Virus record (IMG/VR): IMGVR_UViG_2703718833_000007
Coordinates: 6,191 to 70,190 of that record
DNA: 64,000 nt
Source of the DNA: a virus
Taxonomy: Duplodnaviria > Heunggongvirae > Uroviricota > Caudoviricetes
Direction: 5' to 3' (one strand)
The notes under the pieces were generated by a model. It saw only the letters and a list, made by a program, of their open reading frames with translations. It was not told the origin of the DNA and ran no database searches. This document shows, piece after piece, positions 603 through 53,414 of this stretch. Position numbers and translations under genes: made by a program. Within the stretch, counting starts at the first letter, position 1. Every line of letters begins with the position of its first letter.

Positions 603-1655
603 TCAAATAGCGCCTGCGCGTGTATCGCGTAGCGTTTTTGGTTTAAGCAGGAAATCAAGTGTCGCAGTGAAGCCATCGCCGAAGTAAAAGTCCGAAGCCT
701 TGATCTTGAACGCTTCAAAGTAGGCGATAAAGCCGTTAATGCTTTTGTCTTTCAGGTAGTCAGTGAACGCATAGATCTTACGTTCCAAATCCCGATCCAG
801 TTCAGCAGGTGGCAACAGGCCATCAAACGTGATGTTAAACTCATTAACCACATCGGCAGCGTTTACAGTAGATGACAGCTTGCGCCATTGTTCAGCGTCA
901 GCCAGATACCCATCGAATTTAGTTACCCGGCAAATGTTGATAGGCTTAGGTGTTCCGCCACGGCTACGCCATTGCGTTAAAGCCCACTCAATCACTAATG
1001 TGATCTCATCCTCCGTATACGCTTTGCGTGTTTTTGTTTCTGTCAGTAGTTCGATGAATGGCTTAGCATCACGACATTTGCATCCTGCCTTGTCGTTGTA
1101 GAATGCCAGGCAACGCAATGCAGCATCGCTTATCTGATAGTCACTATCCTGATTGACTTCTTTTCTTTTTATATTTTTCTTTTCTTCTTCTGTTTCTTTT
1201 TCTTCTTCTAATTCTATTTCTAATTCATGACCCTTTCCTGACCCGGTCATGACCATATCATGACCTTTTGTTGTTGGATTGATTAACTTCTCTAATTTTA
1301 ATTGCTCCTTAGCTGTGTTTATGGCTGCCCTGTATGCGCTTTTAGAAGTCATTGATTGGTCCAGCCTTTTCAATAACTTTAAACAAGTTATGTGGCCTTG
1401 AGAGCATTCGAATAAACCAATTTCGATAAAGTATTTCATCATTTCTTCTATGCGTTTTTCAGTCGATCCGACGTTTCGCGCGATGATTCTGGCGTCATGT
1501 CGTAGGTCAAATGTAAGGTTGTGCTGATCTACGTCATAAGTTATCAGTTCTAGGCAATACCAATAAAGCCCGTAGCCTTCCAGGCCATAATCTAATAAAA
1601 CGTTTTGAAGTTTTTCATCGCGGTTCGCATCGCTATCATGCTTAAACCACTTCAT
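603..1655 (-). CDS. Phage replication initiation / replisome organiser protein (DUF4373, Lin1244-like N-terminal domain)
   Basis: Track ORF 350 aa; N-terminus MKWFKHDSDANRDEKLQNVLLDYGLEGYGLYWYCLELI typical of this family; acidic/Lys-rich linker; adjacent to immunity region. Confidence 0.6.
   Translation of the reverse strand: MKWFKHDSDANRDEKLQNVLLDYGLEGYGLYWYCLELITYDVDQHNLTFDLRHDARIIARNVGSTEKRIEEMMKYFIEIGLFECSQGHITCLKLLKRLDQSMTSKSAYRAAINTAKEQLKLEKLINPTTKGHDMVMTGSGKGHELEIELEEEKETEEEKKNIKRKEVNQDSDYQISDAALRCLAFYNDKAGCKCRDAKPFIELLTETKTRKAYTEDEITLVIEWALTQWRSRGGTPKPINICRVTKFDGYLADAEQWRKLSSTVNAADVVNEFNITFDGLLPPAELDRDLERKIYAFTDYLKDKSINGFIAYFEAFKIKASDFYFGDGFTATLDFLLKPKTLRDTRAGAI
1150..1230. other. 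Candidate replication origin (AT-rich pyrimidine tract with TTCTAATTC direct repeats inside replication gene linker)
   Basis: ttcttttctttttatatttttcttttcttcttc...ttctaattctatttctaattc encodes the EEEKETEEEKK linker; analogous to lambda ori inside gene O. Confidence 0.3.
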
Positions 1656-1658
1656 AGA

Positions 1659-1916
1659 TCATTCCTCCGGCAACATCACTACATAGACATCACTGAATGC
1701 ATCAAGACGACAAACAAATCCTTTATCCATTAATGCGGCGAATGCATCATGTACCGTATGAACAGGAAGTTCACACATTGCGGCTACTTCTTTGCGTGAT
1801 GCATCATGTACCCGTCCTTTGTTATCTGCCTTTTCAGCCAGAGCCATTAAGACAAGTTTTTGAATCGGGCTGTTAAGTTTTACGTTCCATGCTTTGCTAA
1901 TAATGTTCATGCTCAT
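1659..1916 (-). CDS. Winged-HTH DNA-binding protein, first gene of leftward early operon (Cro-position regulator or origin-binding helper)
   Basis: Track ORF 85 aa; strong AGGAGA SD; HTH-like KLVLMALAEKADNKGRVHDASRKEVAAMCELPVHTV. Confidence 0.5.
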   Translation of the reverse strand: MSMNIISKAWNVKLNSPIQKLVLMALAEKADNKGRVHDASRKEVAAMCELPVHTVHDAFAALMDKGFVCRLDAFSDVYVVMLPEE

Positions 1917-2222
1917 TGTATTTTCTCCTATGGTTAAAATGAACGCGCTGGCGGGTATCCCATTAGCATTAGATAGCAGTGACTGACCGCTGAACAGATC
2001 CCGCCGTTGCGTGATATTTGTTTTTCGCTTCGCAGCGACACCGGATTTTTAAAGAGCTTTTAAGGTATGTGCCTTTTGTGCTTTCCATTATCTTTTTTCT
2101 TGCATCCTTGCAAGTATGGCCTTACCTTGTCTGCAAGTTTACAGAATGGCGTTAACAGGTCAAGGATTGAAAATTACATTTTGTGACTTGCATCAAATTT
2201 TTTTAGGTTATAGGGTAGCGAC
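1917..2222. promoter_or_regulatory. Divergent immunity control region (PR-like / PRM-like promoters, putative operators)
   Basis: 306-bp gap between divergent wHTH gene and repressor gene; repeated CTTGCA(A/T)G palindromic motifs near 2097-2195; minus-strand TTGCAA-17-TAATGG promoter-like element. Confidence 0.45.
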
Positions 2223-2870
2223 ATGAAAACAAAATGGTATGACTTAGCGAAACAACTCATGCGGGCGCAGGGTATGAGTCAGGATTCATTGGCAGATCTC
2301 ATGGGGATCACAAAAGGCGGCTTGTCACACTGGCTTAACGGTCGCCGCGAGCCGAATCTTGAAGACATTGCGCGGATCATGCGGGCGCTTGGGCGTCGGC
2401 AATTCACTGTTACACATGATGGAATGGTCATTGATGATTCTGTTTCTAACACGTTGCCGGGAGCGCCACCGCGTGATTTAGGCAGTTACCCGGTTGTTGA
2501 CTGGAAGGATGTAGTAAACAATATGGAAGATGCAAGGCGATCAACATTACCACACGTTACGACTAGCGTTATTTGTTCAGATGATAGTTACTGGCTGGTA
2601 GCTAAAGGCGAATCAATGAACGCGCCGCAAGGATTGAGTATACCAGCGGGGACGATGATACTTGTCGATCCGCACGCGCCAGCTATTGATGGCAAACTGG
2701 TTATAGCCCAATTGGAGGAGGGGCAGATACCGACGTTTAAACAGTTGATTATTGATGGAGGCAGAAAACTTTTGCGTTCACTGAATCCGTTGTATCCGCC
2801 AATCCCTATGAATCCAGAATCTAAAATCATAGGCGTGGTAGTGGATGCGAAGATCGTAAACCTGCCATAA
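2223..2870 (+). CDS. CI-like prophage repressor (HTH_XRE + LexA-like S24 peptidase domain)
   Basis: Track ORF 215 aa; N-terminal HTH (SQDSLADLMGITKGGLSHWLNGRREP); C-terminal GESM Ser motif and FKQL Lys motif as in LexA/lambda CI. Confidence 0.8.
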   Translation: MKTKWYDLAKQLMRAQGMSQDSLADLMGITKGGLSHWLNGRREPNLEDIARIMRALGRRQFTVTHDGMVIDDSVSNTLPGAPPRDLGSYPVVDWKDVVNNMEDARRSTLPHVTTSVICSDDSYWLVAKGESMNAPQGLSIPAGTMILVDPHAPAIDGKLVIAQLEEGQIPTFKQLIIDGGRKLLRSLNPLYPPIPMNPESKIIGVVVDAKIVNLP

Positions 2871-2876
2871 ACATTA

Positions 2877-2900
2877 GCCGCCTGGTGGCGGCTTTTCTTT
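2877..2900 (+). terminator. Rho-independent terminator after repressor gene
   Basis: gccgcc-tggt-ggcggc stem-loop followed by ttttcttt. Confidence 0.6.
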
Positions 2901-2993
2901 GCCATAAAAACACCAAAACGTAAACAGAAAACGTTATTTATTGTTTAAATATCAATGACATATAAAATATTTTAAAAAAGTATACAAAATGGA

Positions 2994-3022
2994 TTGACTC
3001 GGTGTTTTACGTGGCGTATATT
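2994..3022 (+). promoter_or_regulatory. Sigma70 promoter (PL analogue) for rightward early operon
   Basis: TTGACT - 17 nt - TATATT preceded by AT-rich UP-like tract. Confidence 0.5.
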
Positions 3023-3156: not shown

Positions 3157-3447
3157 ATGACCGTTACAATCATGTATGGCAAATGTGATAGCAAAATAAA
3201 CGCCAGGGAACGCAGAAGAATAAAAAGAGAAAACGAAAGAAAATCATCACCTGCAATTAATAAAACAGACAATGTGGATAAAGCTATTCGCTTTGCAAAC
3301 GAGGAAAGATGCAAACCAAATAGCATTAAAGAACGTCGCAAAGGAGCAGTAAAATGGTATACGGAAAATGAAAGCGGCAACTACTACCACGCAACGCAAC
3401 CACGCCAGTTAGGGGAAAAACCCCTTGATAAAGTCCGTTACCATTAA
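3157..3447 (+). CDS. N-like transcription antiterminator (P22 gp24 / lambda N analogue)
   Basis: Track ORF 96 aa; strong AAGGAG SD; N-terminal MTVTIMYGK and arginine-rich motif ARERRRIKRENERK; immediately downstream of nut-like site. Confidence 0.65.
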   Translation: MTVTIMYGKCDSKINARERRRIKRENERKSSPAINKTDNVDKAIRFANEERCKPNSIKERRKGAVKWYTENESGNYYHATQPRQLGEKPLDKVRYH

Positions 3448-9664: not shown

Positions 9665-10148
9665 CAGGTTATTAGCCTGCGTTTATGTCGCCGTTTTCGT
9701 GATCATCAACCTTATTGTTAACCATTGCGGCCCGTGGGTAATTCCGATCACCACGGTAGCCGCTGTGTGTGTCAATATGATGATCCGTGACTTCTTGCTG
9801 TATGACGGCGGCTTGAAATGGTCTGCTACAACATGCGCCGCCGCTGGCGCAATCACGGTAATGATAAATTACGATGCTGGAATGGTAGCGATCGCGTCAT
9901 TCGTTGCGGTTGTTTCCGGTGCGCTTATATCTGGAGGTGTTTACCGGGTTTTGCCTGGTGATTTCGATTCTAAGCGCTGGCCTGCAAACATAGCTTCAGC
10001 CATCGGGGATGCGTTAATTTTCCCGACGCTATCGTTTATGGCGTTTATGCCGGAAATATCAGCGATGCAGTTTATCTCAAAAATGGCAGCGGTAACGGTG
10101 ATCACTATCATCATGCGCCGCTATTTCACGTTTGAGGGTAGAAAATGA
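9645..10148 (+). CDS. Multi-pass inner-membrane protein, possibly VUT/YhhQ-like (queuosine-precursor transporter family)
   Basis: Track ORF 9603-10148, start taken at MKKVAIDRLL with AAGAGG SD; 4-5 hydrophobic segments; family assignment from loose pattern resemblance only. Confidence 0.35.
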   Translation: MKKVAIDRLLACVYVAVFVIINLIVNHCGPWVIPITTVAAVCVNMMIRDFLLYDGGLKWSATTCAAAGAITVMINYDAGMVAIASFVAVVSGALISGGVYRVLPGDFDSKRWPANIASAIGDALIFPTLSFMAFMPEISAMQFISKMAAVTVITIIMRRYFTFEGRK

Positions 10149-10672
10149 ATTGGGATGATTATTTTATATACAATCCGGACACAGGTAAGTTGTACTGGAA
10201 ATATAGAAATGACATAGAAGAATCAAGGCGTAAACAATGGAATGCGTGTAATGCTGGTCATGAGGTTGGACATATTGGCGGAAGCGGTGGGTGTCTTAAT
10301 ACAGCGCTTACCGTTGGCGGAAAGCGTTATAATTTAAAAGTACATAGAATATGTTACGAGATGTACTATGGGCCAATACCTGAAGGTAAGGAGGTTGATC
10401 ATATAAATCACGTTAAAACAGATAATCGAGCCGTCAATCTTGGATTAAAAGACCATAAAGATAATATGCGCAACATGTCTTTAATGGTAAACAATACCAG
10501 TGGGTGCGCTGGTATCCATAAAAATAAACATGGTAAATGGGTTGTTAGAATCGGTGGAGGCAAAAGAGGTAATAGAATTTATATAGGGTGTTTTTCTGAT
10601 ATCAATGACGCAATAAAAGCTAGGCGCGACGCTGAAAGAAAGTATGGCTATCATGAAAATCACGGCAAATAG
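10145..10672 (+). CDS. HNH homing endonuclease (HNH_3 + AP2-like DNA-binding domain), paralogue 1 of 4
   Basis: Track ORF 175 aa; INW-DYF start motif, GPIPEG-EVDHINH HNH core, C-terminal AP2-like (AGIHKNKHGKWVVRI). Confidence 0.85.
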   Translation: MNWDDYFIYNPDTGKLYWKYRNDIEESRRKQWNACNAGHEVGHIGGSGGCLNTALTVGGKRYNLKVHRICYEMYYGPIPEGKEVDHINHVKTDNRAVNLGLKDHKDNMRNMSLMVNNTSGCAGIHKNKHGKWVVRIGGGKRGNRIYIGCFSDINDAIKARRDAERKYGYHENHGK

Positions 10673-10869
10673 AACAACCACGCCACCGCCGCGCGGCTTT
10701 GCCCGTGCTGTATTCCTGGCTAACGACCGGGCCATCAATCGTGCTACGCTCAACCGCGTTTTACCGGACTGAAATTTACAAAATGGCGTCATTGCGTGAT
10801 GTGGATCACATAATGGCGCTTTTCACCTTGTTCTGACGTATCCGTTTTGTATACTTCAAACAAGCAAAA

Positions 10870-30756: not shown

Positions 30757-30782
30757 GGGGCCATTTGGCCCCTTTATTTTTT
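30757..30782 (+). terminator. Rho-independent terminator after major tail gene
   Basis: ggggcc-attt-ggcccc hairpin followed by tttatttttt. Confidence 0.7.
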
Positions 30783-31475
30783 ATGGTGACAGTTATGATC
30801 CATGTTCGAACAGGACAATTTGCGGTTGTTGTTGATGGCAGGCGTTACGAGTTTAACCCCTGCTTTGCTGCAATGGCTAAAATAGGCAGTGACAGAGAAC
30901 TGGTCGAATACTTCGCAACGGTGCACGGTGGCAAATATCCATCACGATTGCCAACGGATACAGACCTACGCAATCGCATTCTGGCGCGTTGTTATGGTGA
31001 ACTGGTGCAAACGTCCATCCACATACTTAAATGTTGCTCAGAATGCGAAATAGGCCCGTTATTGGGCGAATGTAGCTTTACTCCTTCTGGTAAGTTGAGA
31101 CTTAAACCTGGATTGATGCCCACCAGCGACGTTATCACGCTTGCGCAGCACTGCATGTTCCACGGTTTAATTGGTGACGGACCGGAGGAAGACGTTGGCG
31201 ATGAGCAGGAAGGCGACTATAAACAGACTTTTGACATCCTTGAATACGTTTACTCTGCCGTTGCTCACCTGGGATTGTCTGAATCTGAAGCATGGGGCAT
31301 GACAATGACCGGATACAGGGCCGCTGTACGCGCTAAAACGCCACCAGACGAAAGAAACGAGAAACGTAAGCCAAACGTTCATATAAATAAACGTGATTAT
31401 GATGAGCAAATGGAGGCCGCTAAAAGGGTGCTGGAATTGATGAAAAAACGCGAGCAAGAAAAAGCCCGGAATTAA
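30783..31475 (+). CDS. Tail assembly chaperone (putative, position-based)
   Basis: Track ORF 30765-31475 trimmed to first ATG after terminator. Confidence 0.4.
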   Translation: MVTVMIHVRTGQFAVVVDGRRYEFNPCFAAMAKIGSDRELVEYFATVHGGKYPSRLPTDTDLRNRILARCYGELVQTSIHILKCCSECEIGPLLGECSFTPSGKLRLKPGLMPTSDVITLAQHCMFHGLIGDGPEEDVGDEQEGDYKQTFDILEYVYSAVAHLGLSESEAWGMTMTGYRAAVRAKTPPDERNEKRKPNVHINKRDYDEQMEAAKRVLELMKKREQEKARN

Positions 31476-31490
31476 CCGGGCCTTTATCTT
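31459..31490. terminator. Bidirectional hairpin terminator between convergent genes
   Basis: gcccgg-aattaa-ccgggc with T-tracts on both strands. Confidence 0.55.
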
Positions 31491-31792
31491 TATTTGTATG
31501 CTGCAAATCTGCATCTTGCCTCATCCAGATCGTGAATATCGTACACGTTATCGTAAATGTAAGTTGCAACCTGTGCTTTCTGTACGTCAGTTGCGTTAGG
31601 GAACTCCATGCTTACAAAAGTCACTGCATCAACGTAGTTCTTAAACATTTTTTTGTTAACGCACAGTGCGTAAATCAATACACCAGGCCAGAAAATCAGC
31701 GCGCCAATGAATGCCATGAGCATATTCAGATGTTTTTTCTGCGCTACAGCCATAGTTACTACGAAGCCGATGAGTGCAATTACCAGTTCCAT
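31490..31792 (-). CDS. Opposite-strand moron: membrane protein (2 TM) with soluble C-terminal domain
   Basis: Track ORF 100 aa; GAGAGGTG SD; inserted between tail chaperone and tape-measure genes. Confidence 0.5.
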   Translation of the reverse strand: MELVIALIGFVVTMAVAQKKHLNMLMAFIGALIFWPGVLIYALCVNKKMFKNYVDAVTFVSMEFPNATDVQKAQVATYIYDNVYDIHDLDEARCRFAAYK

Positions 31793-32167
31793 GATACACC
31801 TCTCATTTACGTTTATCTTCGGTTGTCATTGCCAGCACTAGCACAGCCATCACATTAAATGCTAACCATTCTGTAATATATACATCTATAACCGTTTTGA
31901 TTGCGTCCATTTACCCGCCCCGCTTATTTCTTGTTTTTAAGTGCTTTCAGCATTTCTTCGATAAAGTCGGCATAGTGCTCATGCTCGTTGGGTCGGTAGT
32001 AGTTTTTCATTTTCTTATCCTCTTTTGCTTCCTCCGGTTAATCCGGCCTTCTAAATCCCTTTACTCTATCCCTTTCCTTTAGCCTCTTTATACAAAATGT
32101 ATTCGTTGAAGTGAAGCCATTTTGTATAAAATAGAGATCAGGATCACACTTTTTACGAGGTTAAATC

Positions 32168-34513
32168 ATGGCTACCAGTTTAGGTACAATTTATTACGAA
32201 GTTGATGCAAAAACTGGTCAACTTCTAGTCGCTCAGAGACAGGCTGATCAGGCTTTTGACAGTATAGAGCGCGGCGCAAAACGTGCCGACCGCCAGGTGA
32301 ACACGCTTAAGACTTCAATCAAAGCACTATCCAGGGTCATCCATCTGTTACTTGCTGCGGAGGCTGTGCGCCAGTTTATTGACATGGCGGAGCAAGCAAA
32401 AATGCTTCGTGTCAAAATTAAAATGCTCACAGGTGACGCAGAGGCTGCAGGACGTGTTTTTGACGGCCTGAAAAAAATATCAAAGGAAACCGGGCAAAGC
32501 CTTAAAGACACTGGCGAATTGTGGCAGGGCCTGGCTATTTCACTAAAGAACACTTCCGCTACGGAAGGCCAATTGCTCAACCTGGTTGGCACTATTCAGA
32601 AGATGGGTGCGTTAGGAGGCGCGTCAGCGGAACAGATGTCTAATTCTATGCGCCAGTTCCGCCAGTCTATAGACGGCGGCGTGCTGCGTGCTGAAGAGTT
32701 TAACAGCCTGTTAGAGAACACGCCGACCATCGTACAGACAATGGCCCGCCATATGGGGTTGTCAATGGGCCAGTTCCGCGCCGAAATGCTGGACGGCAAG
32801 ATCACGGCTGAAAGGATGGTTAACGCGATTCAGGCAGCTACACAGGAAACAAACGAGAAGTTTGCACAGTTGCCGCGCACGTCCGGCAAGGCTATCAATG
32901 AGCTTAAAGTTGAGGTGATGGGACTTGTCGAACAGTTAGACGATCTTTTCGGCATATCAGATGGCGTTGTGTCGGCAATAGACTTAATCACTGGTGGCGT
33001 TGAGGGATTAGGTAAAGGCGCAAAATTCGCCGCAACATGTTTCAATACACTAAAAACGGCTGGCAGTGAGTTCATAGACATGTTTGACGACGTGGCTGTT
33101 AAGGCTGGCGAGGTGGCGGAAGAAATCATTAGAATGGTAACGCCAATCAAGGCGCTAATGGATGGCTACAAATGGATGAAGGAGATTGTAGGAAAGCAAA
33201 CAGAAGAATATAACACCAATTATGAGAAGAAATACGGTAAAAGACTTGGTAAGGGAATGCAATTTTGGGATGATTGGCAGGCCGTACTTAACCAAACAAA
33301 AGAAAACAAAGGAACCGACACCGCTAACGACGGCAAGATCACCGGATTCGAGCCGCCAGTAGATAAGCCAGGAAAACCGAAAAAAGGCAAAAAAGACAAG
33401 AAATCTGAAGCTGATCGGCTTGGTGATGAAGGTGTAAGTGTCTCCGACCAGTACAACAAAGACGCCGCCGCTATGCGTAAAGCACTGGAGAACGGCAAGG
33501 CCATTGACGCTGCGTTTGCTCAGGGCAAAATAACCCTCCTTGAGTACAAGGCAGCGCAAAAGGGGATAGGCAAGGAACTGAAGGACGAATTGGCACAAAT
33601 CCCGGTAGAAGAATTGCAGGACAAATGGGCGCACATAGTAAGCCCGATGGATCAGCTTAAGGGCGAAATTGACCCAATCAAACAGGCGCAGAATGAATGG
33701 GCAGTAAGAAAGCAAATGTTATTAGACCTGGGCGCTACAGAGGCGCAACAGAGACAGGCGCAGTTAGAATATGAACAACAGATCCGCGATCTGAAGTGGG
33801 AGCAGTGGCAGGCGCAAAGCGACACAAACAGCCTGATCGGTGCTTGTGTTAGCGGCCTCAAAGGTGGCATGGGTAATGCTCTTACCGGCCTGCTAAACGG
33901 CACTCAATCATTAAGCGAGGTTTTCGCCAACCTGGGAAGCAGCATACTTAACACCGTTGGCAACAAACTCTCAGAAATAGCCGCTAACTGGATAGCAGAT
34001 CAGTTAATGATGGAAACGCAAAGCAAGGCTACCCAGGCAAGCACTGCGGCTGGCGCTGTGGCTGCCCAGGGTGAGATCGCGGCAGCGGCGGCCCCGGCAG
34101 CGGCGGCTACGGCTGCATCAACTGGCGGTAGTTGGGCTATGGCTGGTGCTGCGGCGCTTTCTGCGATCATGTCGCTGGCAACGTCAATTTTTGGCGGCGG
34201 GCGTTATAATGGTGGTTCTGTGAATGGTGGTAGTCTGTATCGCGTAGGGGAACACGGAATACCTGAGCTATTCCAGACGAGCAACGGGCGTCAGTATATG
34301 ATCCCTGGGGAAAATGGCAGGGTTATTCCTGGCCGCGATCTTTTCAGTGGTGGCGGCATTAATATGCCTGTTAACATCACTGTTCAGACCACAAACGGGT
34401 TTAGCGACGAGGACAGTCGCAGACTTGAGCAGACAATGGAACGTGTAGCGATGAAAATGATGGCAAGGGAATCGCAACGACCGGGCGGAATGTTGCAACC
34501 TCGCCGCAAATAA
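32168..34513 (+). CDS. Tail tape-measure protein
   Basis: Track ORF 781 aa; helical N-terminal two-thirds, Gly/Ala-rich C-terminal region; position. Confidence 0.9.
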   Translation: MATSLGTIYYEVDAKTGQLLVAQRQADQAFDSIERGAKRADRQVNTLKTSIKALSRVIHLLLAAEAVRQFIDMAEQAKMLRVKIKMLTGDAEAAGRVFDGLKKISKETGQSLKDTGELWQGLAISLKNTSATEGQLLNLVGTIQKMGALGGASAEQMSNSMRQFRQSIDGGVLRAEEFNSLLENTPTIVQTMARHMGLSMGQFRAEMLDGKITAERMVNAIQAATQETNEKFAQLPRTSGKAINELKVEVMGLVEQLDDLFGISDGVVSAIDLITGGVEGLGKGAKFAATCFNTLKTAGSEFIDMFDDVAVKAGEVAEEIIRMVTPIKALMDGYKWMKEIVGKQTEEYNTNYEKKYGKRLGKGMQFWDDWQAVLNQTKENKGTDTANDGKITGFEPPVDKPGKPKKGKKDKKSEADRLGDEGVSVSDQYNKDAAAMRKALENGKAIDAAFAQGKITLLEYKAAQKGIGKELKDELAQIPVEELQDKWAHIVSPMDQLKGEIDPIKQAQNEWAVRKQMLLDLGATEAQQRQAQLEYEQQIRDLKWEQWQAQSDTNSLIGACVSGLKGGMGNALTGLLNGTQSLSEVFANLGSSILNTVGNKLSEIAANWIADQLMMETQSKATQASTAAGAVAAQGEIAAAAAPAAAATAASTGGSWAMAGAAALSAIMSLATSIFGGGRYNGGSVNGGSLYRVGEHGIPELFQTSNGRQYMIPGENGRVIPGRDLFSGGGINMPVNITVQTTNGFSDEDSRRLEQTMERVAMKMMARESQRPGGMLQPRRK

Positions 34514-34519
34514 ACAAAA

Positions 34520-34547
34520 CCCCGGTACAATGCCGGGGCTATTTTTA
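34520..34547 (+). terminator. Rho-independent terminator after tape-measure gene
   Basis: ccccgg-tacaatg-ccgggg hairpin followed by T-rich tract. Confidence 0.7.
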
Positions 34548-34984
34548 GTTGTTCTCAAAACTTGTATATCCTCTTTCAATTTTTCCACCGTGTACGCTTC
34601 TGGCAAATACCGCGTCAGTATACCTGAAAAATGGGCATGTATATGTATCCCCTTTACTATCCATATATTTTAGCACCCATGCTATGCGTTTTACGTTGCT
34701 TTTATTTGCCGGATTTTTCATTTTATTTTTCCTCCGCAAATCACAATCTTCCGTTTCTTGCTATATAGCTGCGAGCAAACATCACCTGCCAGATGTTCCA
34801 AATCTCACGCCACGTAAATTCATCATCTTCCATATCTCACACCATCGCGCTTGTATGGTTCGCCATCAGCAAACGGGATTAACTCATCGTTTGCCACCAT
34901 TCGATTAAACCAGTCTTTCAGAACAACCAGGGAGAACCGGATCCCGTAACTGTGCAATTCGCGCCACCTCATTTATGTGCCACC

Positions 34985-35491
34985 CTATTTACCGTGATTT
35001 GGATGAAAACCGTATTTAATTTCGGATTCTTGCCTTGCCTTGATTGCATCATCTTTGCTTTTGAATACCCCTAAATGTTTTAATTTTCCGTTGATTCTGA
35101 TAACTGCGCACCATTTACGCAATCTTTCAAGCCAATAAACACCAGCACAGCCGGATTTATTATTATGGTTGCGACTTCTGTTGTGGTTATTGTCTTGGCA
35201 GGTAACTAGCCGCAAATTTTCTATATGGTTGTTTACCTTATTGTGATCGATATGATCTATTTCCATTCCTTCCGGGATTGGTCCGTTGTGCATTTCCCAT
35301 ATAATTCTATGCTCTTGGTATATCCTCCTGTTAAACCCTACATGTATATACCCACTTCGTTTATGAAGGCACCCGGCTCGCTTTCCCGCATATCTTGAAT
35401 TCCAGGTTTTGGAAACGCCATTTCTTGGCTTCCATAATATAGCGCCGTCACTGTATATAAAATAATCATTCCAGTTAATTACTTGTGACAT
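34985..35491 (-). CDS. HNH homing endonuclease (HNH_3 + AP2-like), paralogue 4 of 4, opposite strand
   Basis: Track ORF 168 aa; INWNDYFIY, GPIPEGMEIDHIDHN, SGCAGVYWLERLRKWCAVI motifs. Confidence 0.85.
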   Translation of the reverse strand: MSQVINWNDYFIYSDGAILWKPRNGVSKTWNSRYAGKRAGCLHKRSGYIHVGFNRRIYQEHRIIWEMHNGPIPEGMEIDHIDHNKVNNHIENLRLVTCQDNNHNRSRNHNNKSGCAGVYWLERLRKWCAVIRINGKLKHLGVFKSKDDAIKARQESEIKYGFHPNHGK

Positions 35492-35733
35492 CCGCGCACC
35501 CCTGACAATTCATTAAATTTGTGATGCTCGACGATTACCCATGCTTTCAAGTCCTGGCTATAAACACGCCAATCTAAATTGGCGCGGAAGGCGTAGCCGT
35601 AGCCGTCCTTTAATTTTTTGGGTGCAACATCCTTGTTTAAAAACGCGTTCAGAAGTGCTTTTGCTTTTTTGATTACGTGTCCAGGTGCGTTTTTCTGTGC
35701 TTTAAGATTTTTGTCAATCATTACCAATTTCAT
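35479..35733 (-). CDS. Hypothetical protein, possibly RelE/ParE-fold toxin-like
   Basis: Track ORF 84 aa; WRVYSQDLKAWVIVEHH loosely resembles the RelE/ParE C-terminal strand pattern; weak. Confidence 0.35.
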   Translation of the reverse strand: MKLVMIDKNLKAQKNAPGHVIKKAKALLNAFLNKDVAPKKLKDGYGYAFRANLDWRVYSQDLKAWVIVEHHKFNELSGVRGCHK

Positions 35734-35753
35734 AACTCACCCCACGCAATCCA

Positions 35754-35909
35754 TTAGTTGACCACTTTCAGGAAGAAATCACGGTATTCATCTTCTTTTG
35801 CGTTCATCATGAATTGACCGTATTTGAATGCGTCATCAAAGCCTTTTACAATCGCCACTTCCACCTGTTCGAATGCTTTGTTTAGCATTACCACTACATA
35901 GCGTTTCAT
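35754..35909 (-). CDS. Hypothetical small protein (51 aa), upstream partner of the 84-aa ORF
   Basis: Track ORF 35754-35960 trimmed to MKRYVVV with G-rich SD. Confidence 0.35.
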   Translation of the reverse strand: MKRYVVVMLNKAFEQVEVAIVKGFDDAFKYGQFMMNAKEDEYRDFFLKVVN

Positions 35910-36024
35910 GATGCCCCCCCTTTGTTGGTACTTCTTTCTCTTCTTGCTTTCTATATACATCTTGTTATGTCCTGTGTGAAGCCATTTTGTAAACTGGGTA
36001 TAATTCTTGTGACGAAGTTCTCAT

Positions 36025-45088: not shown

Positions 45089-47026
45089 ATGATTTACACA
45101 ACTGGAACAATTGCCATCAATGGCAACACCGTTACAGGTACGGGAACAGATTTTTCCGCGCCGCTTTCTCTCATCCGTGTAGGTTGCACGCTCATTGCCA
45201 TCGGCAATCCGGTGCAGATCTTTACCATTACGGAAATCAAAAACGGTACTGAACTGTCAGTTACGCCAGCGGCTAACCCTGCAATCCCTGCGGGAACAAA
45301 ATTTAGTATTCTGCTTTCTGATTCGATCTCAGTTGATGGGCTTGCCCAGGACGTAGCTGAAACGTTGCGCTACTATCAGAGTAAAGAAACAGAAGTAGCG
45401 GAAGCGCTTGAATGGAGTCAGAACCATATAGCAGACAAGATCGGGCTTGGTGCAGATCACCGCGACTGGCCTGATTGCAACGATCCTACTGGTTATATAG
45501 GTTTTTGCCGTGCTGTAGAAGCTGAATCACGTAACTTTCCGTCAATCGCATCTGGCGAAATTTACTTGGTTGGTTGGCTTGCGCGTGGTGACAATGCCGT
45601 TATTAACGGCTGTTTCGTTGGTACAATTAGCCTTTCACTGTACACATACAGATATAACCCAACAGATGGTACGAAAGTATGGACACGACACGCAAGAAAA
45701 GATGAGGTAAGCAGATTGGCCCAGGGTTCTGACGAATCAGCTTTATGGGCCGCAGGAGGGAAGCAAAAATTTGTTCTGTTGGATGGAGGTGATGGGAATA
45801 CTCTATCTTGGGGTGTTTGGGATGATGCTGTTAGTCAATGGAGTCCATTAGCAATAGCTCAGGGCGGTACTGGTGCGCTTGATGCTTTAACTGCTAGGAA
45901 CAATCTAGGGGTGGGTGTAGGTGACAGTCCTCAATTCAGGGATGTGAATCTATCACGCTCAACAGATGAATCATCTGGCTTGGTATCTGGTGGTATACAA
46001 AGTTCCATACTTCTGGGATCTGATGGTACTAAGCGTGCAGAAGGTTTATTTTATGTAGAACACCAACAAGATAAACCAACACAAGTAACGCTTTCTGTAA
46101 ATGGAGCTAACGAAGGTTATAAATATTTATGCTTTAATACAATGGGGCAGATTTTAGTAGATACAGCCATTTTCAGATCAAACGGCACTAATCCACTTAT
46201 TATTAAAAGCAACACACCAACAATCTTATTCGTTGAAGAGGATCGCCCAAACGGATCACCTTATTACAGCTTAAATTTTGATGATGGTAACTGGCGCATT
46301 CAGAAAAGTGGCAATGGGTATAATGGTGAATATGTAATAAACTACGACTATCAAAAAAATGAAATAGAGGTTCCAAAACTCAAAGCATCAAGAATGAGTA
46401 TTCTTGGGACAGGCAGTAGTTTAGAAATAAATAGCGCTGGAACAGCAGATGAAACGACGTCTATTCAATCATGGGGTAATAGATCTGATCGCTTGTCTGT
46501 TTTTGAGGTAAGTTTAGATACAGGCTATTTATTTTACGCGCAGAAAAATGCTGATAAAAGCATGGTTTTATCAGTCAACGGGAAGATAGAATGCGTGTCA
46601 TTATCCCAATCATCTGACAGGGATCTGAAGGATAACATCAAGATTATCAGTGACGCCACTGAAGCCATCCGTAAAATGAACGGGTACACCTACACGCTTA
46701 AAGAAAACGGCCTGCCTTACGCTGGCGTTATCGCTCAGGAGGTCATGGAGGCAATACCGGAAGCAATAGGGTCGTTCACAAAGTACGGTGAAGAACTGGC
46801 AGGCCCGACACAAAGCGGTCATGAACTGCGAGAAGAAACCCGTTTCCTTAGCGTTGACTACGCAGCAGTCACTGGTTTACTTGTCCAGGTGGCACGCGAA
46901 ACAGATAACCGCGTCACCGAACTTGAAGAGGAAAACGCCAGCCTGCGAGATAACATTGCCGCAATGGATGAGCGTATCGCAAAACTTGAAGCGCTTGTCA
47001 GCAAGTTGACTGGAAGCGAAAAATAA
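45089..47026 (+). CDS. Tail fibre/spike protein with C-terminal S74-type intramolecular chaperone domain
   Basis: Track ORF 645 aa; C-terminal SDRDLKDNI...NGYTYTLKENGLPYAGVIAQEV and terminal coiled coil. Confidence 0.75.
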   Translation: MIYTTGTIAINGNTVTGTGTDFSAPLSLIRVGCTLIAIGNPVQIFTITEIKNGTELSVTPAANPAIPAGTKFSILLSDSISVDGLAQDVAETLRYYQSKETEVAEALEWSQNHIADKIGLGADHRDWPDCNDPTGYIGFCRAVEAESRNFPSIASGEIYLVGWLARGDNAVINGCFVGTISLSLYTYRYNPTDGTKVWTRHARKDEVSRLAQGSDESALWAAGGKQKFVLLDGGDGNTLSWGVWDDAVSQWSPLAIAQGGTGALDALTARNNLGVGVGDSPQFRDVNLSRSTDESSGLVSGGIQSSILLGSDGTKRAEGLFYVEHQQDKPTQVTLSVNGANEGYKYLCFNTMGQILVDTAIFRSNGTNPLIIKSNTPTILFVEEDRPNGSPYYSLNFDDGNWRIQKSGNGYNGEYVINYDYQKNEIEVPKLKASRMSILGTGSSLEINSAGTADETTSIQSWGNRSDRLSVFEVSLDTGYLFYAQKNADKSMVLSVNGKIECVSLSQSSDRDLKDNIKIISDATEAIRKMNGYTYTLKENGLPYAGVIAQEVMEAIPEAIGSFTKYGEELAGPTQSGHELREETRFLSVDYAAVTGLLVQVARETDNRVTELEEENASLRDNIAAMDERIAKLEALVSKLTGSEK

Positions 47027-47056
47027 GAGGTGATGTGCGAAGAACATCGCCGCGCG

Positions 47057-47085
47057 AAACGAGGCTCACGCCTCGTTTCTTTTTG
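47057..47085 (+). terminator. Rho-independent terminator at right end of prophage 1
   Basis: acgaggc-tcac-gcctcgt hairpin followed by ttctttttg. Confidence 0.7.
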
Positions 47086-47459
47086 TGTACCAAATAGTGA
47101 CCAAATTTTAAAAAACAAAACTAAATCATACATAACACACTGTTTTTAAAGAGATAATATTTAACATTAACCATTCCAGACAGGACTGGTGAGTAAGTCC
47201 AGGGTATTGAAGTTGTGCGTAATCATTGAGATCCCGTTATTTTTATCAATTTTTGTTGCTATCCGATCGCAAAAAAGCCACGTCATATGATCAGATAATT
47301 CTGATAATGATAGACGCTATTTAACACTTCACACGGTTTGTATACGGATAAGCATTTTGCTTTTTGTATTCAATTTAGACAGAATTTTATTAATCATTTC
47401 AGGGTAATGGGGTGATGAGATGTTGCGTAACAGGGCCAGAAGGCTAGACTACAAAATAA

Positions 47460-48464
<1,005 letters not shown>

Positions 48465-48941
48465 CAAAAGCAATTTTTCCGGCTGTCTGTATACAAAAAC
48501 GCCGCAAAGTTTGAGCGAAGTCAATAAACTCTCTACCCATTCAGGGCAATATCTCTCTTGCAGGTGAATGCAACGTCAAGCGATGGGCGTTGCGCTCCAT
48601 ATTGTCTTACTTCCTTTTTTGAATTACTGCATAGCACAATTGATTCGTACGACGCCGACTTTGATGAGTCGGCTTTTTTTTGCCTGTTATTTATCAGCGT
48701 CTACCCTTTAAGAGTCCACCCAATGACCAGAGGGAAATATGACGACACTTATTTATTTGCAAATTCCTGTCCCTGAACCGATTCCTGGCGATCCTGTTCC
48801 AGTGCCCGATCCGATCCCTCGCCCGCAACCCATGCCTGACCCACCACCCGATGAAGAACCGATTAAATTGTCGCATCGTGAGCGTAGATCTGCGAGGATA
48901 CGCGCCTGCTAACTTTGCGTCGATGACCACGAGAATAGATT

Positions 48942-50315
48942 GTGACCGCTTTTTCTACCCTGAATGTTTTGCCTCCCGCCCAACTCACGAACCTTAATGA
49001 GTTGGGTTATTTAACCATGACGCCGGTGCAGGCCGCCGCGCTTCCGGCGATCCTTGCCGGAAAAGATGTTCGCGTGCAGGCGAAAACCGGCAGCGGCAAA
49101 ACGGCGGCTTTTGGCCTCGGCTTGTTACAGCAAATTGATGCGTCGCTATTTCAAACCCAGGCTTTAGTGCTGTGTCCTACGCGTGAACTGGCGGATCAGG
49201 TGGCAGGTGAATTGCGTCGGCTGGCGCGTTTTCTGCCAAATACCAAAATTTTGACGTTGTGCGGTGGTCAACCGTTCGGTATGCAGCGTGATTCGTTGCA
49301 ACATGCGCCGCATATTATCGTGGCAACGCCGGGGCGTTTGCTGGATCACCTGCAAAAAGGCACGGTATCACTGGATGCGTTGAATACGCTGGTGATGGAT
49401 GAGGCCGACCGCATGCTGGATATGGGATTTAGCGATGCCATTGATGATGTCATCCGTTTTGCGCCTGCATCTCGACAGACGCTTCTGTTTTCGGCAACCT
49501 GGCCGGAAGCCATCGCTGCAATCAGCGGACGAGTGCAACGCGATCCTTTGGCGATTGAAATTGACTCAACAGATGCTTTGCCACCCATTGAACAACAATT
49601 TTATGAGACATCCAGCAAAGGCAAAATTCCTCTGTTGCAACGGTTATTAAGCTTGCATCAGCCATCCTCTTGCGTGGTGTTTTGCAATACCAAAAAAGAT
49701 TGCCAGGCTGTCTGCGACGCGCTGAATGAAGTAGGGCAAAGTGCATTGTCATTACACGGCGATTTGGAGCAACGCGATCGCGATCAGACCCTGGTACGTT
49801 TTGCTAACGGTAGCGCCCGTGTACTGGTCGCGACTGATGTTGCTGCGCGTGGTCTGGATATTAAATCGCTTGAGCTGGTGGTGAACTTTGAGCTGGCGTG
49901 GGACCCTGAAGTTCATGTACATCGCATCGGTCGTACAGCTCGTGCAGGAAATAGCGGTCTGGCGATCAGTTTCTGTGCTCCGGAAGAAGCACAGCGGGCC
50001 AATATCATTTCTGACATGTTGCAGATAAAACTTAACTGGCAAACGCCGCCAGCTAATAGTTCCATTGCGACGCTGGAAGCAGAAATGGCAACGTTGTGTA
50101 TCGATGGCGGGAAAAAAGCCAAAATGCGCCCGGGTGATGTATTAGGTGCACTGACAGGAGATATCGGGCTTGATGGCGCAGATATTGGCAAAATCGCCGT
50201 GCATCCGGCGCATGTCTATGTCGCGGTCCGTCAGGCTGTTGCTCATAAAGCATGGAAACAGTTACAGGGCGGGAAGATTAAAGGAAAAACGTGCCGGGTG
50301 CGGTTATTAAAATAA
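48942..50315 (+). CDS. dbpA: ATP-dependent RNA helicase DbpA (DEAD-box), host gene
   Basis: Track ORF 457 aa; Walker A AKTGSGKT, DEAD box (VMDEAD), SAT, HRIGRTAR motifs. Confidence 0.95.
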   Translation: MTAFSTLNVLPPAQLTNLNELGYLTMTPVQAAALPAILAGKDVRVQAKTGSGKTAAFGLGLLQQIDASLFQTQALVLCPTRELADQVAGELRRLARFLPNTKILTLCGGQPFGMQRDSLQHAPHIIVATPGRLLDHLQKGTVSLDALNTLVMDEADRMLDMGFSDAIDDVIRFAPASRQTLLFSATWPEAIAAISGRVQRDPLAIEIDSTDALPPIEQQFYETSSKGKIPLLQRLLSLHQPSSCVVFCNTKKDCQAVCDALNEVGQSALSLHGDLEQRDRDQTLVRFANGSARVLVATDVAARGLDIKSLELVVNFELAWDPEVHVHRIGRTARAGNSGLAISFCAPEEAQRANIISDMLQIKLNWQTPPANSSIATLEAEMATLCIDGGKKAKMRPGDVLGALTGDIGLDGADIGKIAVHPAHVYVAVRQAVAHKAWKQLQGGKIKGKTCRVRLLK

Positions 50316-50335
50316 TGAAATGTTGAATTGCCGGG

Positions 50336-50432
50336 TGCAAGAGTAAACATCTTATTCGGGATTGCCGGATGCGACGCTGGCCGCGTCTTATCCGGCCTCC
50401 ATAAGAGTAGCCCGATACGCTTGCGCATCGGG
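50336..50432. repeat. REP/BIME-type repetitive extragenic palindromes between dbpA and ttcA
   Basis: tgccggatgcgacgctggccgcgtcttatccggcc and gcccgatacgcttgcgcatcgggc match the E. coli REP pattern. Confidence 0.7.
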
Positions 50433-50443
50433 CGCTATCCTGG

Positions 50444-51379
50444 TTATTTCACTTCAACCACATTCAGCCGTAACTCATCCAACTGATTTTCATCTTCTTC
50501 TGGCTGCCAGCACGCCGGTTGTAGTGGGATCTCTTCGCGATCAAACGCCAGATCACCCCCGTTAACCACTTCAGAACCGTGGGTGATGCCTTTGAAATCG
50601 AACAGGTTGGTATCGCACAGATGCGACGGCACCACATTCTGCATCGCGCTGAACATCGTCTCGATACGCCCTGGATAACGTTTATCCCAGTCACGCAACA
50701 TGTCAGCAATCACCTGACGTTGCAGGTTAGGCTGTGAACCGCACAGGTTGCACGGAATAATCGGGAACGCTTTTGCATCGGCAAATCGCTGAATATCTTT
50801 CTCGCGGCAGTAGGCCAGCGGACGAATAACGATATGTTTGCCATCATCGCTCATCAGTTTCGGAGGCATACCTTTCATCTTACCGCCGTAGAACATATTT
50901 AAGAACAACGTTTGCAGGATATCGTCACGATGGTGACCCAACGCGATCTTCGTCGCCCCCAGTTCCGTTGCGGTACGATAAAGGATACCGCGACGAAGGC
51001 GAGAACACAGTGAGCAAGTGGTTTTGCCCTCTGGAATCTTCTCTTTCACGATACCGTAAGTATTCTCTTCAACAATCTTGTACTCAACGCCCAGCTTTTC
51101 AAGATACTCGGGCAGAACGTGTTCCGGGAAGCCCGGTTGCTTTTGATCGAGGTTAACAGCCACCAGCGAAAAATTGATTGGCGCGCTTTGCTGCAAATTG
51201 CGCAGAATCTCCAGCATGGTATAGCTGTCTTTACCCCCGGAGAGGCAAACCATGATGCGATCGCCTTCTTCAATCATATTGAAGTCAGCAATGGCTTCGC
51301 CCACGTTACGACGCAGACGTTTTTGTAATTTGTTCAGATTGTATTGTTCTTTCTTTGTAATTTGTTGATTTTCTTGCAT
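50444..51379 (-). CDS. ttcA: tRNA 2-thiocytidine biosynthesis protein TtcA (5' end adjacent to Rac-type integrase)
   Basis: Track ORF 311 aa; PP-loop SGGKDS and Cys motifs. Confidence 0.9.
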
Positions 51380-51430
51380 TATTTCAGTTCTCTGGTACTA
51401 AATGGGGCAAATTGGGGGCAAACTTTGCAA

Positions 51431-52666
51431 CTACGATAACCGCGCATTCAACATGGCTATCTGTTCGTCGTTCATGTCATCAATCCACATACCGTAAATT
51501 TCATACACCATCTGCGCAGTTTCATGCCCCATTTGGCTGGCTATAAATGCCGGGTTCGCTCCTGCCGTCAACAGCCAGCAGGCAAAAGTATGCCGCGTAT
51601 GGTACGGATTACGGCGGCGAATACCAGCACGTTTTACTGCTGCATTCCACCTTGCCCCCAAACTGCTTACCGAGTAATAAGGTTTTTGTTTTCCGTTACA
51701 CACCCTGGGCATGAAAACAAAATGCAGTTTTTGCTTTTCGGTTCTGCCGTACTCCCGATGATAAAAGGTGATTTCGCTTTTGCGATGATGCCCGGTCAGT
51801 TTGTATTGCTCCTTCAGTGCTTCAAGAGCAGGCTGCAGTAGTGTTACTGTTCGGATCCCGGCATTTGTTTTTGGGGGACCGAACATATCAAGTATCGTCA
51901 GGTTTCTTCTGACATTCACTATTCCCTTTTCGAGATCCACATCCTCCCACGCCAGAGCTGCCAGTTCCCCGTGACGAAGTCCTGAGTAAACGGCAAATTT
52001 CCACAAGTTCTGGCTCTGTCCTTTTTCACTTTCCATTAATGCATTGAATTCTGTTTTAGATAACGGATCAGGCTTTATTCTGTTTCGCTGTAATTTTTTT
52101 ACTCCTTCAAATGGTTTGGTTGATATAAATCCCGACTGATACGCAAAACGCAACAGCGAACAGAGCAGGGCGATATAGTTATCAACTGTGCGCACGGTTC
52201 TTCCTTTTTTGTTGGATCTTGGATTATCCAGGTAAAGCGTTTCTCCATGCAGCAGTTCATTCCGGTAGTTTAAGATATCGCTATAACGAATATGTGATAT
52301 CGGGGTACTTTCACAAATTATTATTCTGAGTGTTTTTAATTGTGATTTTGTTTTCTTCATTGTGTATGTTGTTAACTCTGTCTCTTTAATTTTTGTCCAG
52401 ATATCACAAAGCTCTCCGAACGTTTTTATGACTCTCGTTGTCACCATTTTTGCCCCAGTGCTGGACTGGGGAAAACGTCTTAAATACTCAAATTCACCGG
52501 AGTTTATTTCATGAACTATCAGCGCTCTTAAATTTCCGGCCTTTTTAATATTACTGTTTGTAATCTCCCAGCCTTTTAATGTTTCCCGACATCGTTTTCC
52601 TCGAAACATGAACCAGATGCGAATGTATCTACCTCTAATCTCGACACCTGTTGGTAATTTAGACAT
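51431..52666 (-). CDS. intR: Rac prophage integrase (tyrosine recombinase)
   Basis: Track ORF 411 aa; C-terminal catalytic R...HxxR...Y region (NPYHTRHTFA). Confidence 0.9.
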   Translation of the reverse strand: MSKLPTGVEIRGRYIRIWFMFRGKRCRETLKGWEITNSNIKKAGNLRALIVHEINSGEFEYLRRFPQSSTGAKMVTTRVIKTFGELCDIWTKIKETELTTYTMKKTKSQLKTLRIIICESTPISHIRYSDILNYRNELLHGETLYLDNPRSNKKGRTVRTVDNYIALLCSLLRFAYQSGFISTKPFEGVKKLQRNRIKPDPLSKTEFNALMESEKGQSQNLWKFAVYSGLRHGELAALAWEDVDLEKGIVNVRRNLTILDMFGPPKTNAGIRTVTLLQPALEALKEQYKLTGHHRKSEITFYHREYGRTEKQKLHFVFMPRVCNGKQKPYYSVSSLGARWNAAVKRAGIRRRNPYHTRHTFACWLLTAGANPAFIASQMGHETAQMVYEIYGMWIDDMNDEQIAMLNARLS

Positions 52667-52667
52667 A

Positions 52668-52883
52668 TCATGAGTCTTTGATAAACTGATTTATCTTTGG
52701 ATAGTTGTACCAGATAATCCCTCGTTTGCTGTCTGGCTTACCTAAAGGAGATACTCGTTTGAAGTGGAAGCCCTCCACCCAACAGTTCTGGCGGTATGCT
52801 TCAATTTGTCTGGCCCCCAGACCAGTGCGAAGCATCAGGCCGTATTCAACCATCCACTCTTCATTAAAGATTACTTGTGCCAT
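52668..52883 (-). CDS. xisR: Rac prophage excisionase
   Basis: Track ORF 52668-52907 trimmed to [15 protein letters not shown]. Confidence 0.8.
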
Positions 52884-52961
52884 CGCATCACCTCTGGCAG
52901 GCGCCAATGTTAGACTGAAATTGACGCCCGATGTTGATTATTAATAATAAGCTATGAAGTT

Positions 52962-53171
52962 TTAATTTGAATACAATGCAATTCTCGAGGACTGAAGTTT
53001 CTCGCAATTAAAATTTATCAGTTTTACTTTCTGCTCTCTGGAAACGCCTGCTTCTTTTTTACCTGAGAGCATTTTTTCGCATTCTGATTTCGTTAGTTTA
53101 GATTTTGAATATCTTGTCCAGTTAGTAGGAGTGCCACCTTCCTTTTCAATAGTGGCGGTAATTTTATACAT
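52962..53171 (-). CDS. rcbA: Rac prophage protein RcbA (YdaC)
   Basis: Track ORF 52962-53243 trimmed to MYKITATIEKEGG. Confidence 0.75.
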   Translation of the reverse strand: MYKITATIEKEGGTPTNWTRYSKSKLTKSECEKMLSGKKEAGVSREQKVKLINFNCEKLQSSRIALYSN

Positions 53172-53358: not shown

Positions 53359-53414
53359 AATTTTTCTCATAAAAAATATTTCAAGTTGGCGGTGCATTAC
53401 ACCGCCAGGCTGAA

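Follow-up and report, generated by a model that had tools for sequence, protein, structure and literature searches.

Why does a 100-codon open reading frame (ORF) run against the direction of a phage tail operon? The question is raised by a 64,000-nt stretch of the IMG/VR record IMGVR_UViG_2703718833_000007 (positions 6,191 to 70,190 of that record; in the following, the window), in which a minus-strand ORF, here called orf100, lies between two plus-strand late genes, one coding for a DUF6246 protein and the other for the tape measure protein. A preliminary description of the locus had taken orf100 for a moron between tail chaperone and tape measure genes, encoding a membrane protein for superinfection exclusion or lysogenic conversion. 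By its sequence characteristics orf100 is a genuine gene, and it is the last of a unit of three ORFs (orf28, orf35, and orf100; Table 1). The part that is exchanged between phages is orf35 plus orf100, and the view that these two constitute a moron-type, horizontally moving inner-membrane module within an opposite-strand cassette is well supported; as such, the unit is a new, fairly ordinary example of the known moron class. The preliminary description was thus right about an added element with its own terminator and incomplete in describing orf100 alone; it had missed orf35, orf28, and the promoter-bearing palindrome at 32087..32130. The tape measure gene stands where it had been placed, irrespective of the "tail chaperone" label for the DUF6246 gene, which is a designation by position only.

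Over the region, the window is 92–94% identical to mEp554, mEp044, mEp010, and mEp021, Mexican coliphages of the mEpimmI group (PMC11893012). Its right end matches host ttcA and the Rac prophage, and the window is therefore an mEp021-like (mEpimmI) prophage integrated in an Escherichia coli chromosome.

Table 1. Features of the cassette, its flanks, and the immunity region (window coordinates unless stated otherwise).
Feature	Position	Strand	Remarks
CI-like repressor gene	2223..2870		HTH_3 and Peptidase_S24 domains
N-like gene	3157..3447		after the repressor gene; rrn-type boxA in front
DUF6246 gene	30765..31475	+	upstream late gene; Pfam PF19759, E 7e-56; PHROG 791
Terminator-like hairpin, bidirectional	31459..31496	both	GCCCGG-AATTAA-CCGGGC at 31464..31481
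Swappable cargo segment	31486..31915	-	orf35 and orf100 with their ribosome-binding sites; flanks conserved in relatives
orf100	31490..31792	-	last cassette gene; ATG start, 100 aa
mEp554_92, mEp554_93	31532..31858, 31897..32082 (in mEp554, L001: 2332..2607, 2698..2883)	+	shadow ORFs
orf35	31803..31910	-	single-pass membrane peptide MDAIKTVIDVYITEWLAFNVMAVLVLAMTTEDKRK; 35 aa; pooled dN/dS 0.27
orf28	31924..32010	-	soluble micro-protein MKNYYRPNEHEHYADFIEEMLKALKNKK, first gene of the unit; 28 aa; GAGGA ribosome-binding site
Palindrome, perfect	32087..32130	both	TTTATACAAAATG-N18-CATTTTGTATAAA; between orf28 and the tape measure start codon
Cassette promoter, predicted sigma-70	32087..32128	-	inside the palindrome, divergent from the tape measure gene
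Tape measure gene	32168..34513	+	downstream late gene, divergent from the cassette; Pfam TMP_3, E 2e-51

The length of orf100 was considered weak evidence for coding, because the window holds 119 ORFs of at least 90 aa, many of which are shadow ORFs. The ratio of nonsynonymous to synonymous substitutions (dN/dS, Nei–Gojobori), pooled across nine distinct orf100 alleles, was 0.15 in the annotated frame, with zero internal stops, whereas that of the antisense frame (mEp554_92 in GenBank) was 0.94; the minus-strand gene inside the tail operon that had been described earlier is thereby borne out. A Shine-Dalgarno sequence (GAGAGGTG) is situated 6 nt upstream of the ATG, and the annotation pipeline PGAP predicts the same minus-strand gene in five E. 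coli chromosomes, in prophages. The GC content of the cassette is 0.39–0.42, compared with 0.47–0.50 in the flanking tail genes, and the sign of its GC skew is reversed. In the GenBank record of mEp554 (PP180005.1), by contrast, the cassette is covered by two plus-strand ORFs, mEp554_92 and mEp554_93, the latter being an antisense overlap with the strongly constrained orf28. The public annotation of mEp554 is corrected accordingly, and two unannotated micro-genes, orf28 and orf35, are brought to light.

All three ORFs are preceded by a purine-rich ribosome-binding site. The stop codon of orf28 lies 13 nt ahead of the orf35 start and that of orf35 10 nt ahead of the orf100 start, inside or beside the ribosome-binding site of orf100; with the frames only 10 nt apart, translational coupling of orf35 and orf100 is likely. 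orf28 comprises 28 or 29 codons, depending on the allele (MKN(Y/VN)YRPNEHERYADFIEEMLKALKNKK), the allele groups differing by an in-frame indel of 3 nt, and its pooled dN/dS of 0.04–0.05 argues for very strong purifying selection. orf35 is also free of stops. Its two allele types are equal in length and 60% identical, and its product consists of an acidic stretch of 14 N-terminal residues, one hydrophobic segment, and a basic C-terminus, a charge distribution that fits an N-out, C-in orientation. It is present wherever orf100 occupies this slot. On two gut metagenome contigs (L012, 3235..3461; L013, 407..633), orf35 is tandemly duplicated, with two identical 35-codon copies before orf100; a 60-aa ORF whose C-terminus resembles that of orf28 precedes the duplication on both.

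Downstream, the unit is closed by a hairpin with stem arms at 31464–31469 and 31476–31481 and the loop AATTAA, flanked by an A-tract from 31459 and a T-rich stretch to 31496. For minus-strand (cassette) RNA, the folding energy is −19.5 kcal/mol (z −4.4), and the sequence behind the hairpin is UUUUUCUU (U5CUU); for plus-strand (late operon) RNA, the energy is −17.4 kcal/mol (z −3.4), and CUUUAUCUUUAUUU comes next. With stable folds and U-tracts on both strands, the predicted hairpin is bidirectional in form, as had been proposed, and the better terminator on the minus strand. The DUF6246 stop codon (31473–31475) lies within the loop, and that of orf100 (31490–31492) is 8 nt from the stem. In mEp554 and mEp021 the hairpin is annotated as a terminator, on opposite strands, and in relatives it is conserved together with the DUF6246 end as the right flank of the slot.

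What lies between the flanks is variable. When the cassette was aligned against 21 related loci, the part from window position 32180 to ∼31915 (tape measure start, palindrome, and orf28) was conserved in most of them, whatever lies beyond, and the segment ∼31486..31915 was replaced (blastn breakpoints at cassette positions ∼263–268 and ∼696). mEp021, mEp010, and many prophages carry different cargo at the same site, and the orf35–orf100 segment was found in 5 of 5,426 complete E. coli genomes. An exact search with the palindrome retrieved 43 IMG/VR contigs of ∼50–57 kb, and slot contents were counted over 36 resolved IMG/VR loci. orf28 was followed by orf35 and orf100 in six of them, and in another two by a secreted protein and then orf35 and orf100. 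Most frequent, with 12 loci, was orf28 with a secreted protein of 116–165 aa that has a common signal peptide (MKRL..AFNANA). A VasI/TagO-like lipoprotein (PF11319, E 2e-16) was encoded together with a BamE-like lipoprotein (8/36), alone (1/36), or together with a 106-aa protein, with or without orf28 (4/36); the remaining three loci held other combinations. At least five cargo sets alternate in the slot, with orf35 plus orf100 among them; nearly all the cargo proteins have a Sec signal peptide, a lipobox, or TM (transmembrane) segments, and at every locus that could be oriented the cargo was on the strand opposite the tail genes, divergent from the tape measure gene. orf28, present in 23 of the 36 loci alongside several different cargo types, is by its distribution part of the conserved flank rather than of the swappable cargo; the idea that it is universal in the slot was dropped on the same count.

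The alternative secreted cargo (for example, the minus-strand genes L002 2317..2733, L005 2711..3061, L008 3285..3782, and L009 3788..4201) offers a hint as to how exchange may occur. Products of 116, 137/138, and 165 aa have near-identical signal peptides (MKRL(I/A/V)K..AFNANA) and mature parts that appear to differ, which suggests that cargo is exchanged via recombination within the signal-peptide coding region.

A further arrangement was observed on a metagenome contig outside the 36 loci (L010, Logan SRR29277969). Its usual slot holds orf28 only, and a distant orf100 homologue, P0009, lies between the tube gene and the DUF6246 gene (1617..2120), without orf35. P0009 is preceded by a second copy of the palindrome, in which the arms are conserved and the spacer has diverged, and followed by the bidirectional hairpin of that slot. 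Promoter module, cargo, and hairpin therefore behave as one portable design. The cassette of the window has what characterizes morons: it is extra DNA, absent at the same site in close relatives, its base composition differs from that of its neighbors (lower GC, reversed skew), and it has its own terminator, predicted in silico (hairpin 31464..31481).

How the cassette is likely to be transcribed follows from the palindrome, whose 11-bp arm cores are invariant and whose spacer is always 18 nt long and variable in sequence (17 of the 21 loci; 43 IMG/VR contigs). The cassette strand reads TATACAAAATGG-C-TTCACT-N17-TATAAA, in which an upstream box (32128..32117), a −35 element (32115..32110), a 17-nt spacer, and a −10 element (32092..32087) can be recognized as parts of a predicted promoter, which is conserved in all relatives. 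Transcription would start at ∼32080 and yield a purine-rich leader of ∼70 nt. The pattern scan had missed this promoter because it demands a T at the last −10 position. As a plain terminator, the palindrome was rejected, since no U-tract follows it; by eye, it also did not match a LexA, CRP, or FNR site.

The same design occurs twice more in the window. The early promoter after the repressor gene, a strong one (2981..3021, plus strand; upstream of boxA and the N-like gene), reads TATACAAAATGG-A-TTGACT-N17-TATATT, and that of a second opposite-strand cassette (minus strand, 35993..35950) reads TTTACAAAATGG-C-TTCACA-N17-TATATA; the three align in register. The composite TACAAAATGG-N23-GTATA, a signature of 15 exact bases common to the cassette and early promoters, occurs in the window only at these three sites (the early one at 2983). 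The immunity region contains a variant, inverted pair of boxes (TACAGAATGG at 2140 and CATTTTGTG at 2177; 2140..2185); located between the repressor gene and the divergent leftward genes, this pair overlaps a predicted leftward promoter. The box could be a regulator half-site or, alternatively, a promoter-class signature of mEpimmI phages. The k-mers common to the immunity and early-promoter regions are mainly the TACAAAATGG box itself, which does not separate an operator from an UP-like element. As side observations, the box in the form T(A/T)TACAAAATGG occurs nine times at up to one mismatch, compared with 2.1 expected, and another inverted box pair lies upstream of ninG (10775..10853).

The second cassette (34519..35993, minus strand) directly follows the tape measure gene. 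It comprises a small ORF (likely start 35907), a ParE-like toxin gene (35479..35733), an HNH_3 endonuclease gene (34985..35491), and further small ORFs, and it ends beside the tape measure stop codon in a bidirectional hairpin of its own (CCCCGG-CATTGTA-CCGGGG, ∼34519..34545).

The orf100 protein begins with two hydrophobic segments (residues ∼2–17 and 24–45; Kyte-Doolittle 15-mer means up to 2.8 and 2.2, respectively), and the AlphaFold2 model, based on a shallow family alignment, is all-helical (helices 2–19, 24–63, 69–82, and 86–95; mean predicted local distance difference test score 70.8). The two N-terminal TM helices and the C-terminal domain of the preliminary description are thus borne out; the latter comprises ∼55 aa, is predicted to be helical, and contains seven basic and eight acidic residues. 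Orientation is a different matter. The loop contains two lysines and the stretch just past TM2 three, which makes the topology ambiguous by the positive-inside rule, and a cytoplasmic C-terminal domain is only weakly predicted. In the family alignment, which includes a 44%-identical relative, TM1 varies freely, whereas the loop, TM2, and much of the C-terminal domain are conserved, with an invariant core at the TM2 end (W35-P-x-VLIYALCVNK47).

By the searches made here, this family is tiny and very narrowly distributed. A word-indexed search of 5.8 billion proteins yielded only eight clusters, 70–94% identical to orf100, and an exhaustive profile search of 1.84 billion representatives yielded P0001, P0009, a 54-aa fragment, and one spurious repeat protein, so that P0009 (122 aa, 44% identity, E 1.5e-20) was the sole real distant member added. 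Among 50,697 phage records, tblastn found orf100 only in mEp554 and mEp044; a metagenome scan added three gut contigs of the same phage type, and a collection of contigs with one genome per species did not contain the module. Scans of orf100, orf35, and orf28 against Pfam, PHROGs, PADLOC, and NCBIfam, run with single sequences and with all ten orf100 family members, gave only non-significant matches driven by hydrophobic composition. Among them was a weak match of orf100 to Hol_Tox (E 0.19), the only one to a holin family. None of the three matched PADLOC-DB at E up to 1, and Imm_superinfect (PF14373) was absent among the Pfam matches of all ten family members at E up to 5. The orf100 model had no match in BFVD or the Protein Data Bank (PDB) at E 0.001 or better, nor did a sequence search of the PDB with the family profile return one.

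What, then, does the pair do? Our working interpretation, held tentatively and at somewhat less than even chances, is that orf35 and orf100 interfere with an attack that crosses the envelope, most likely genome entry of a superinfecting phage. The unit would be read from the palindrome promoter (32128..32087) through the ∼70-nt leader, orf28, orf35, and orf100 to the hairpin (31481..31464). The single-pass orf35 product and the two-helix orf100 product would insert into the inner membrane and probably act together, with the near-invariant TM2 end (WPxVLIYALCVNK) as a possible interaction surface, and would hinder genome entry in the manner of HK97 gp15, whose gene occupies the equivalent slot. 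The terminator would keep the cassette transcript from running antisense into the DUF6246 gene, and late transcription, necessarily terminator-resistant, would read the cassette antisense and thereby damp it during virion production. A possible plus-strand restart promoter may, together with the plus-strand hairpin, complicate any prediction of this antisense coupling.

The closest precedent is HK97 gene 15, the first moron described, which lies between the tail chaperone and tape measure genes and whose product, a superinfection-exclusion protein of the inner membrane, prevents genome injection (PMC3594210). Like orf100, located between the DUF6246 and TMP_3 genes, it codes for a small inner-membrane protein, has its own terminator, and occupies a positionally equivalent slot. 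In contrast, gp15 has 62 aa and one TM segment and is encoded on the strand of the tail genes, whereas orf100 has 100 aa and two such segments, lies on the opposite strand, and belongs to a unit of three ORFs that diverges from the tape measure gene. Nor is it a homologue of gp15 or YebO (no BLASTP alignment at E up to 100; hhalign probability 0.7%). The T4 protein Imm, a small phage inner-membrane protein with two hydrophobic segments, blocks DNA injection; orf100 resembles it in size and in the number of such segments, but neither it nor its nine relatives match PF14373 or a related Pfam family at E up to 5. For the regulatory layout, phi80 taiEcA is informative, an opposite-strand defense gene within the Q late operon that is active in the lysogen and whose expression Q lowers (PMC11364771). 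There as here, an accessory gene is transcribed against the surrounding late operon (a "noncontiguous operon"), in the present case a minus-strand cassette that interrupts the plus-strand DUF6246 and tape measure genes. Since mEp021 is annotated with a Q-like regulator, taiEcA is a plausible model for the coupling proposed above. It differs in lying at another place of the late operon and in encoding a 26-kDa protein linked to the central tail-fiber protein J (PMC11364771), not a small membrane protein; homology between the two would not be expected. Finally, the mEpimmI group has a Cor-like lipoprotein, Lpp, with a demonstrated exclusion phenotype (PMC11893012). Lpp and orf100 are both accessory envelope proteins of the same phage group; Lpp, however, is encoded elsewhere and acts at the level of the outer-membrane receptor, whereas orf100 lacks a lipobox and sits in the tail-operon slot.

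An envelope-modifying role for orf100 would fit the envelope-targeted alternative cargo, and some kind of envelope protection is its probable function. Of the function assigned in the preliminary description, position, membrane character, and an envelope-targeted slot are in favor; exclusion itself is argued by analogy only, because no similarity to gp15/YebO, Imm_superinfect, or the library families was found, and expression in the lysogen is not assured. Several results weigh against genome-entry exclusion. The searches of Pfam, PHROGs, PADLOC, NCBIfam, and the PDB related orf100 to no characterized exclusion or defense protein, the fold searches (BFVD, PDB) returned no informative match, and the topology is not fixed by charge (two versus three flanking lysines). 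Exclusion by a lipoprotein whose gene is located at another genomic position (Lpp) has already been demonstrated for the phage group (PMC11893012). The cassette promoter has the same upstream box and −10 context as the early promoter that follows the CI-like repressor gene and must be off in a lysogen, and a variant box pair is found in the immunity region. This likeness is the main reason why lysogen expression is uncertain; a repressor-binding function of the box would leave the cassette silent in that state. Should the pair nevertheless exclude phages, it would be a new, narrowly distributed family among the few inner-membrane injection blockers and a means of studying the passage of siphophage DNA through the inner membrane. 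Irrespective of this, the slot shows gut coliphages swapping envelope-modifying cargo at a fixed, promoter-equipped position, and this is relevant to why strains of gut E. coli differ in their susceptibility to phages.

The promoter likeness leads directly to an unlikely alternative, according to which the same genes form an early lytic unit under repressor control that is off in the lysogen. The box TACAAAATGG and the AC-N5-GTATA element would then be regulator sites common to the cassette and the early promoter; the cassette would be switched on right after infection or induction, and orf35 and orf100 would act in lytic growth, where they might exclude secondary infections in the manner of T4 Imm or condition the inner membrane for the cycle of the phage itself. 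In favor of this reading are the restriction of the exact composite TACAAAATGG-N23-GTATA to the early promoter and the two cassettes, the −35 and −10 elements in register, and the inverted variants (TACAGAATGG, CATTTTGTG) over the predicted leftward promoter of the immunity region; invariant palindrome arms around a variable spacer of fixed length are, moreover, the typical pattern of a protein-binding site. However, the box is A/T-rich and located at −48 to −37, the position of an UP-like element, and may be just a feature recognized by RNA polymerase. An additional inverted repeat (TTGACTCG-N22-CGAGTCAA), present at the early promoter and missing from the cassettes, could be the real operator. 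Furthermore, the promoter design recurs in cassette 2, whose ParE-like toxin module is of a kind normally expressed constitutively. The literature is of no help in this respect, as the paper on the mEpimmI phages defines no repressor operators.

A more far-reaching proposal, which we regard as rather unlikely, is a dedicated mEpimmI "landing pad" for envelope cargo, consisting of the bidirectional terminator and a palindromic, regulator-bound divergent promoter whose box also occurs at the immunity and early promoters. In this way, inserted morons would come under the lysis–lysogeny switch, and orf35 plus orf100 would be a new two-component inner-membrane system without relation to known families that blocks phage genome entry.

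Lysogenic conversion unrelated to phage exclusion is improbable. Here, the pair would alter the inner membrane against other envelope-directed threats (colicins, type VI effectors, antimicrobial peptides, or stress) or modulate a host membrane protein. The company that orf35 and orf100 keep in the slot is compatible with this, as none of the VasI/TagO-like and BamE-like lipoproteins and secreted proteins is known to be anti-phage; the lack of PADLOC matches for the three ORFs and the working exclusion lipoprotein already encoded by the group point in the same direction. On the other hand, no homology indicates protection of the colicin, type VI secretion, or stress type, and the best-studied cargo of the equivalent HK97 slot is an exclusion protein.

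Quite improbable, too, is a membrane-permeabilizing toxin or abortive-infection pair, in which a holin-like orf100 product would cause triggered depolarization and orf35 would be its inhibitor or partner. In architecture, two TM segments, a short loop, and a charged C-terminal tail do resemble a class II holin, to which the weak Hol_Tox match and the small, tightly linked, sometimes duplicated orf35 may be added. The likeness ends with the architecture, as all family matches are non-significant and driven by hydrophobic composition and orf100 lies outside the lysis cassette. The phage has its own lysis genes at ∼17.6–19.3 kb (by sequence reading: a holin candidate at 17618..17818, an endolysin, and Rz/Rz1), so that orf100 was rejected as the holin of the phage itself, and the L010 homologue lacking orf35 is hard to reconcile with an essential antidote.

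That the minus-strand ORF is not functional, and that instead the plus strand codes (through the mEp554 ORFs or through a −1 frameshift extension of DUF6246 like that of lambda GT) or the region serves only as antisense or terminator, is very improbable and, at the level of comparative sequence analysis, already refuted, despite the GenBank entries, a −1 frame of DUF6246 that is open for 145 codons across the orf100 antisense (31424..31858), and a G-AAA-AAA-C run near the DUF6246 end (31442..31449, ∼15 nt ahead of the hairpin) with a superficial likeness to a G/GT-type frameshift site: the plus-strand dN/dS is 0.94 compared with 0.15 for orf100, the supposed extension is a Cys-rich shadow of a membrane protein gene, and relatives with other cargo lack the segment altogether, which precludes conservation of a structural GT-type extension; the run was accordingly judged coincidental.

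As to the surroundings of the cassette, a Phage_tail_2 tube protein is also encoded among the flanking plus-strand genes. The part of the window from ∼47000 to 64000 comprises host DNA (ttcA and a zinc transport gene) and the Rac region (intR, recE, recT, and a ydaU-like gene); the mEpimmI prophage therefore adjoins Rac. The prophage probably carries three HNH endonuclease genes (10145..10672, 18301..18822, and 34985..35491), two of which were checked against Pfam (HNH_3) and one, 18301..18822, was likened by eye. The latter splits the lysis cassette, being situated between the endolysin and Rz/Rz1 genes.

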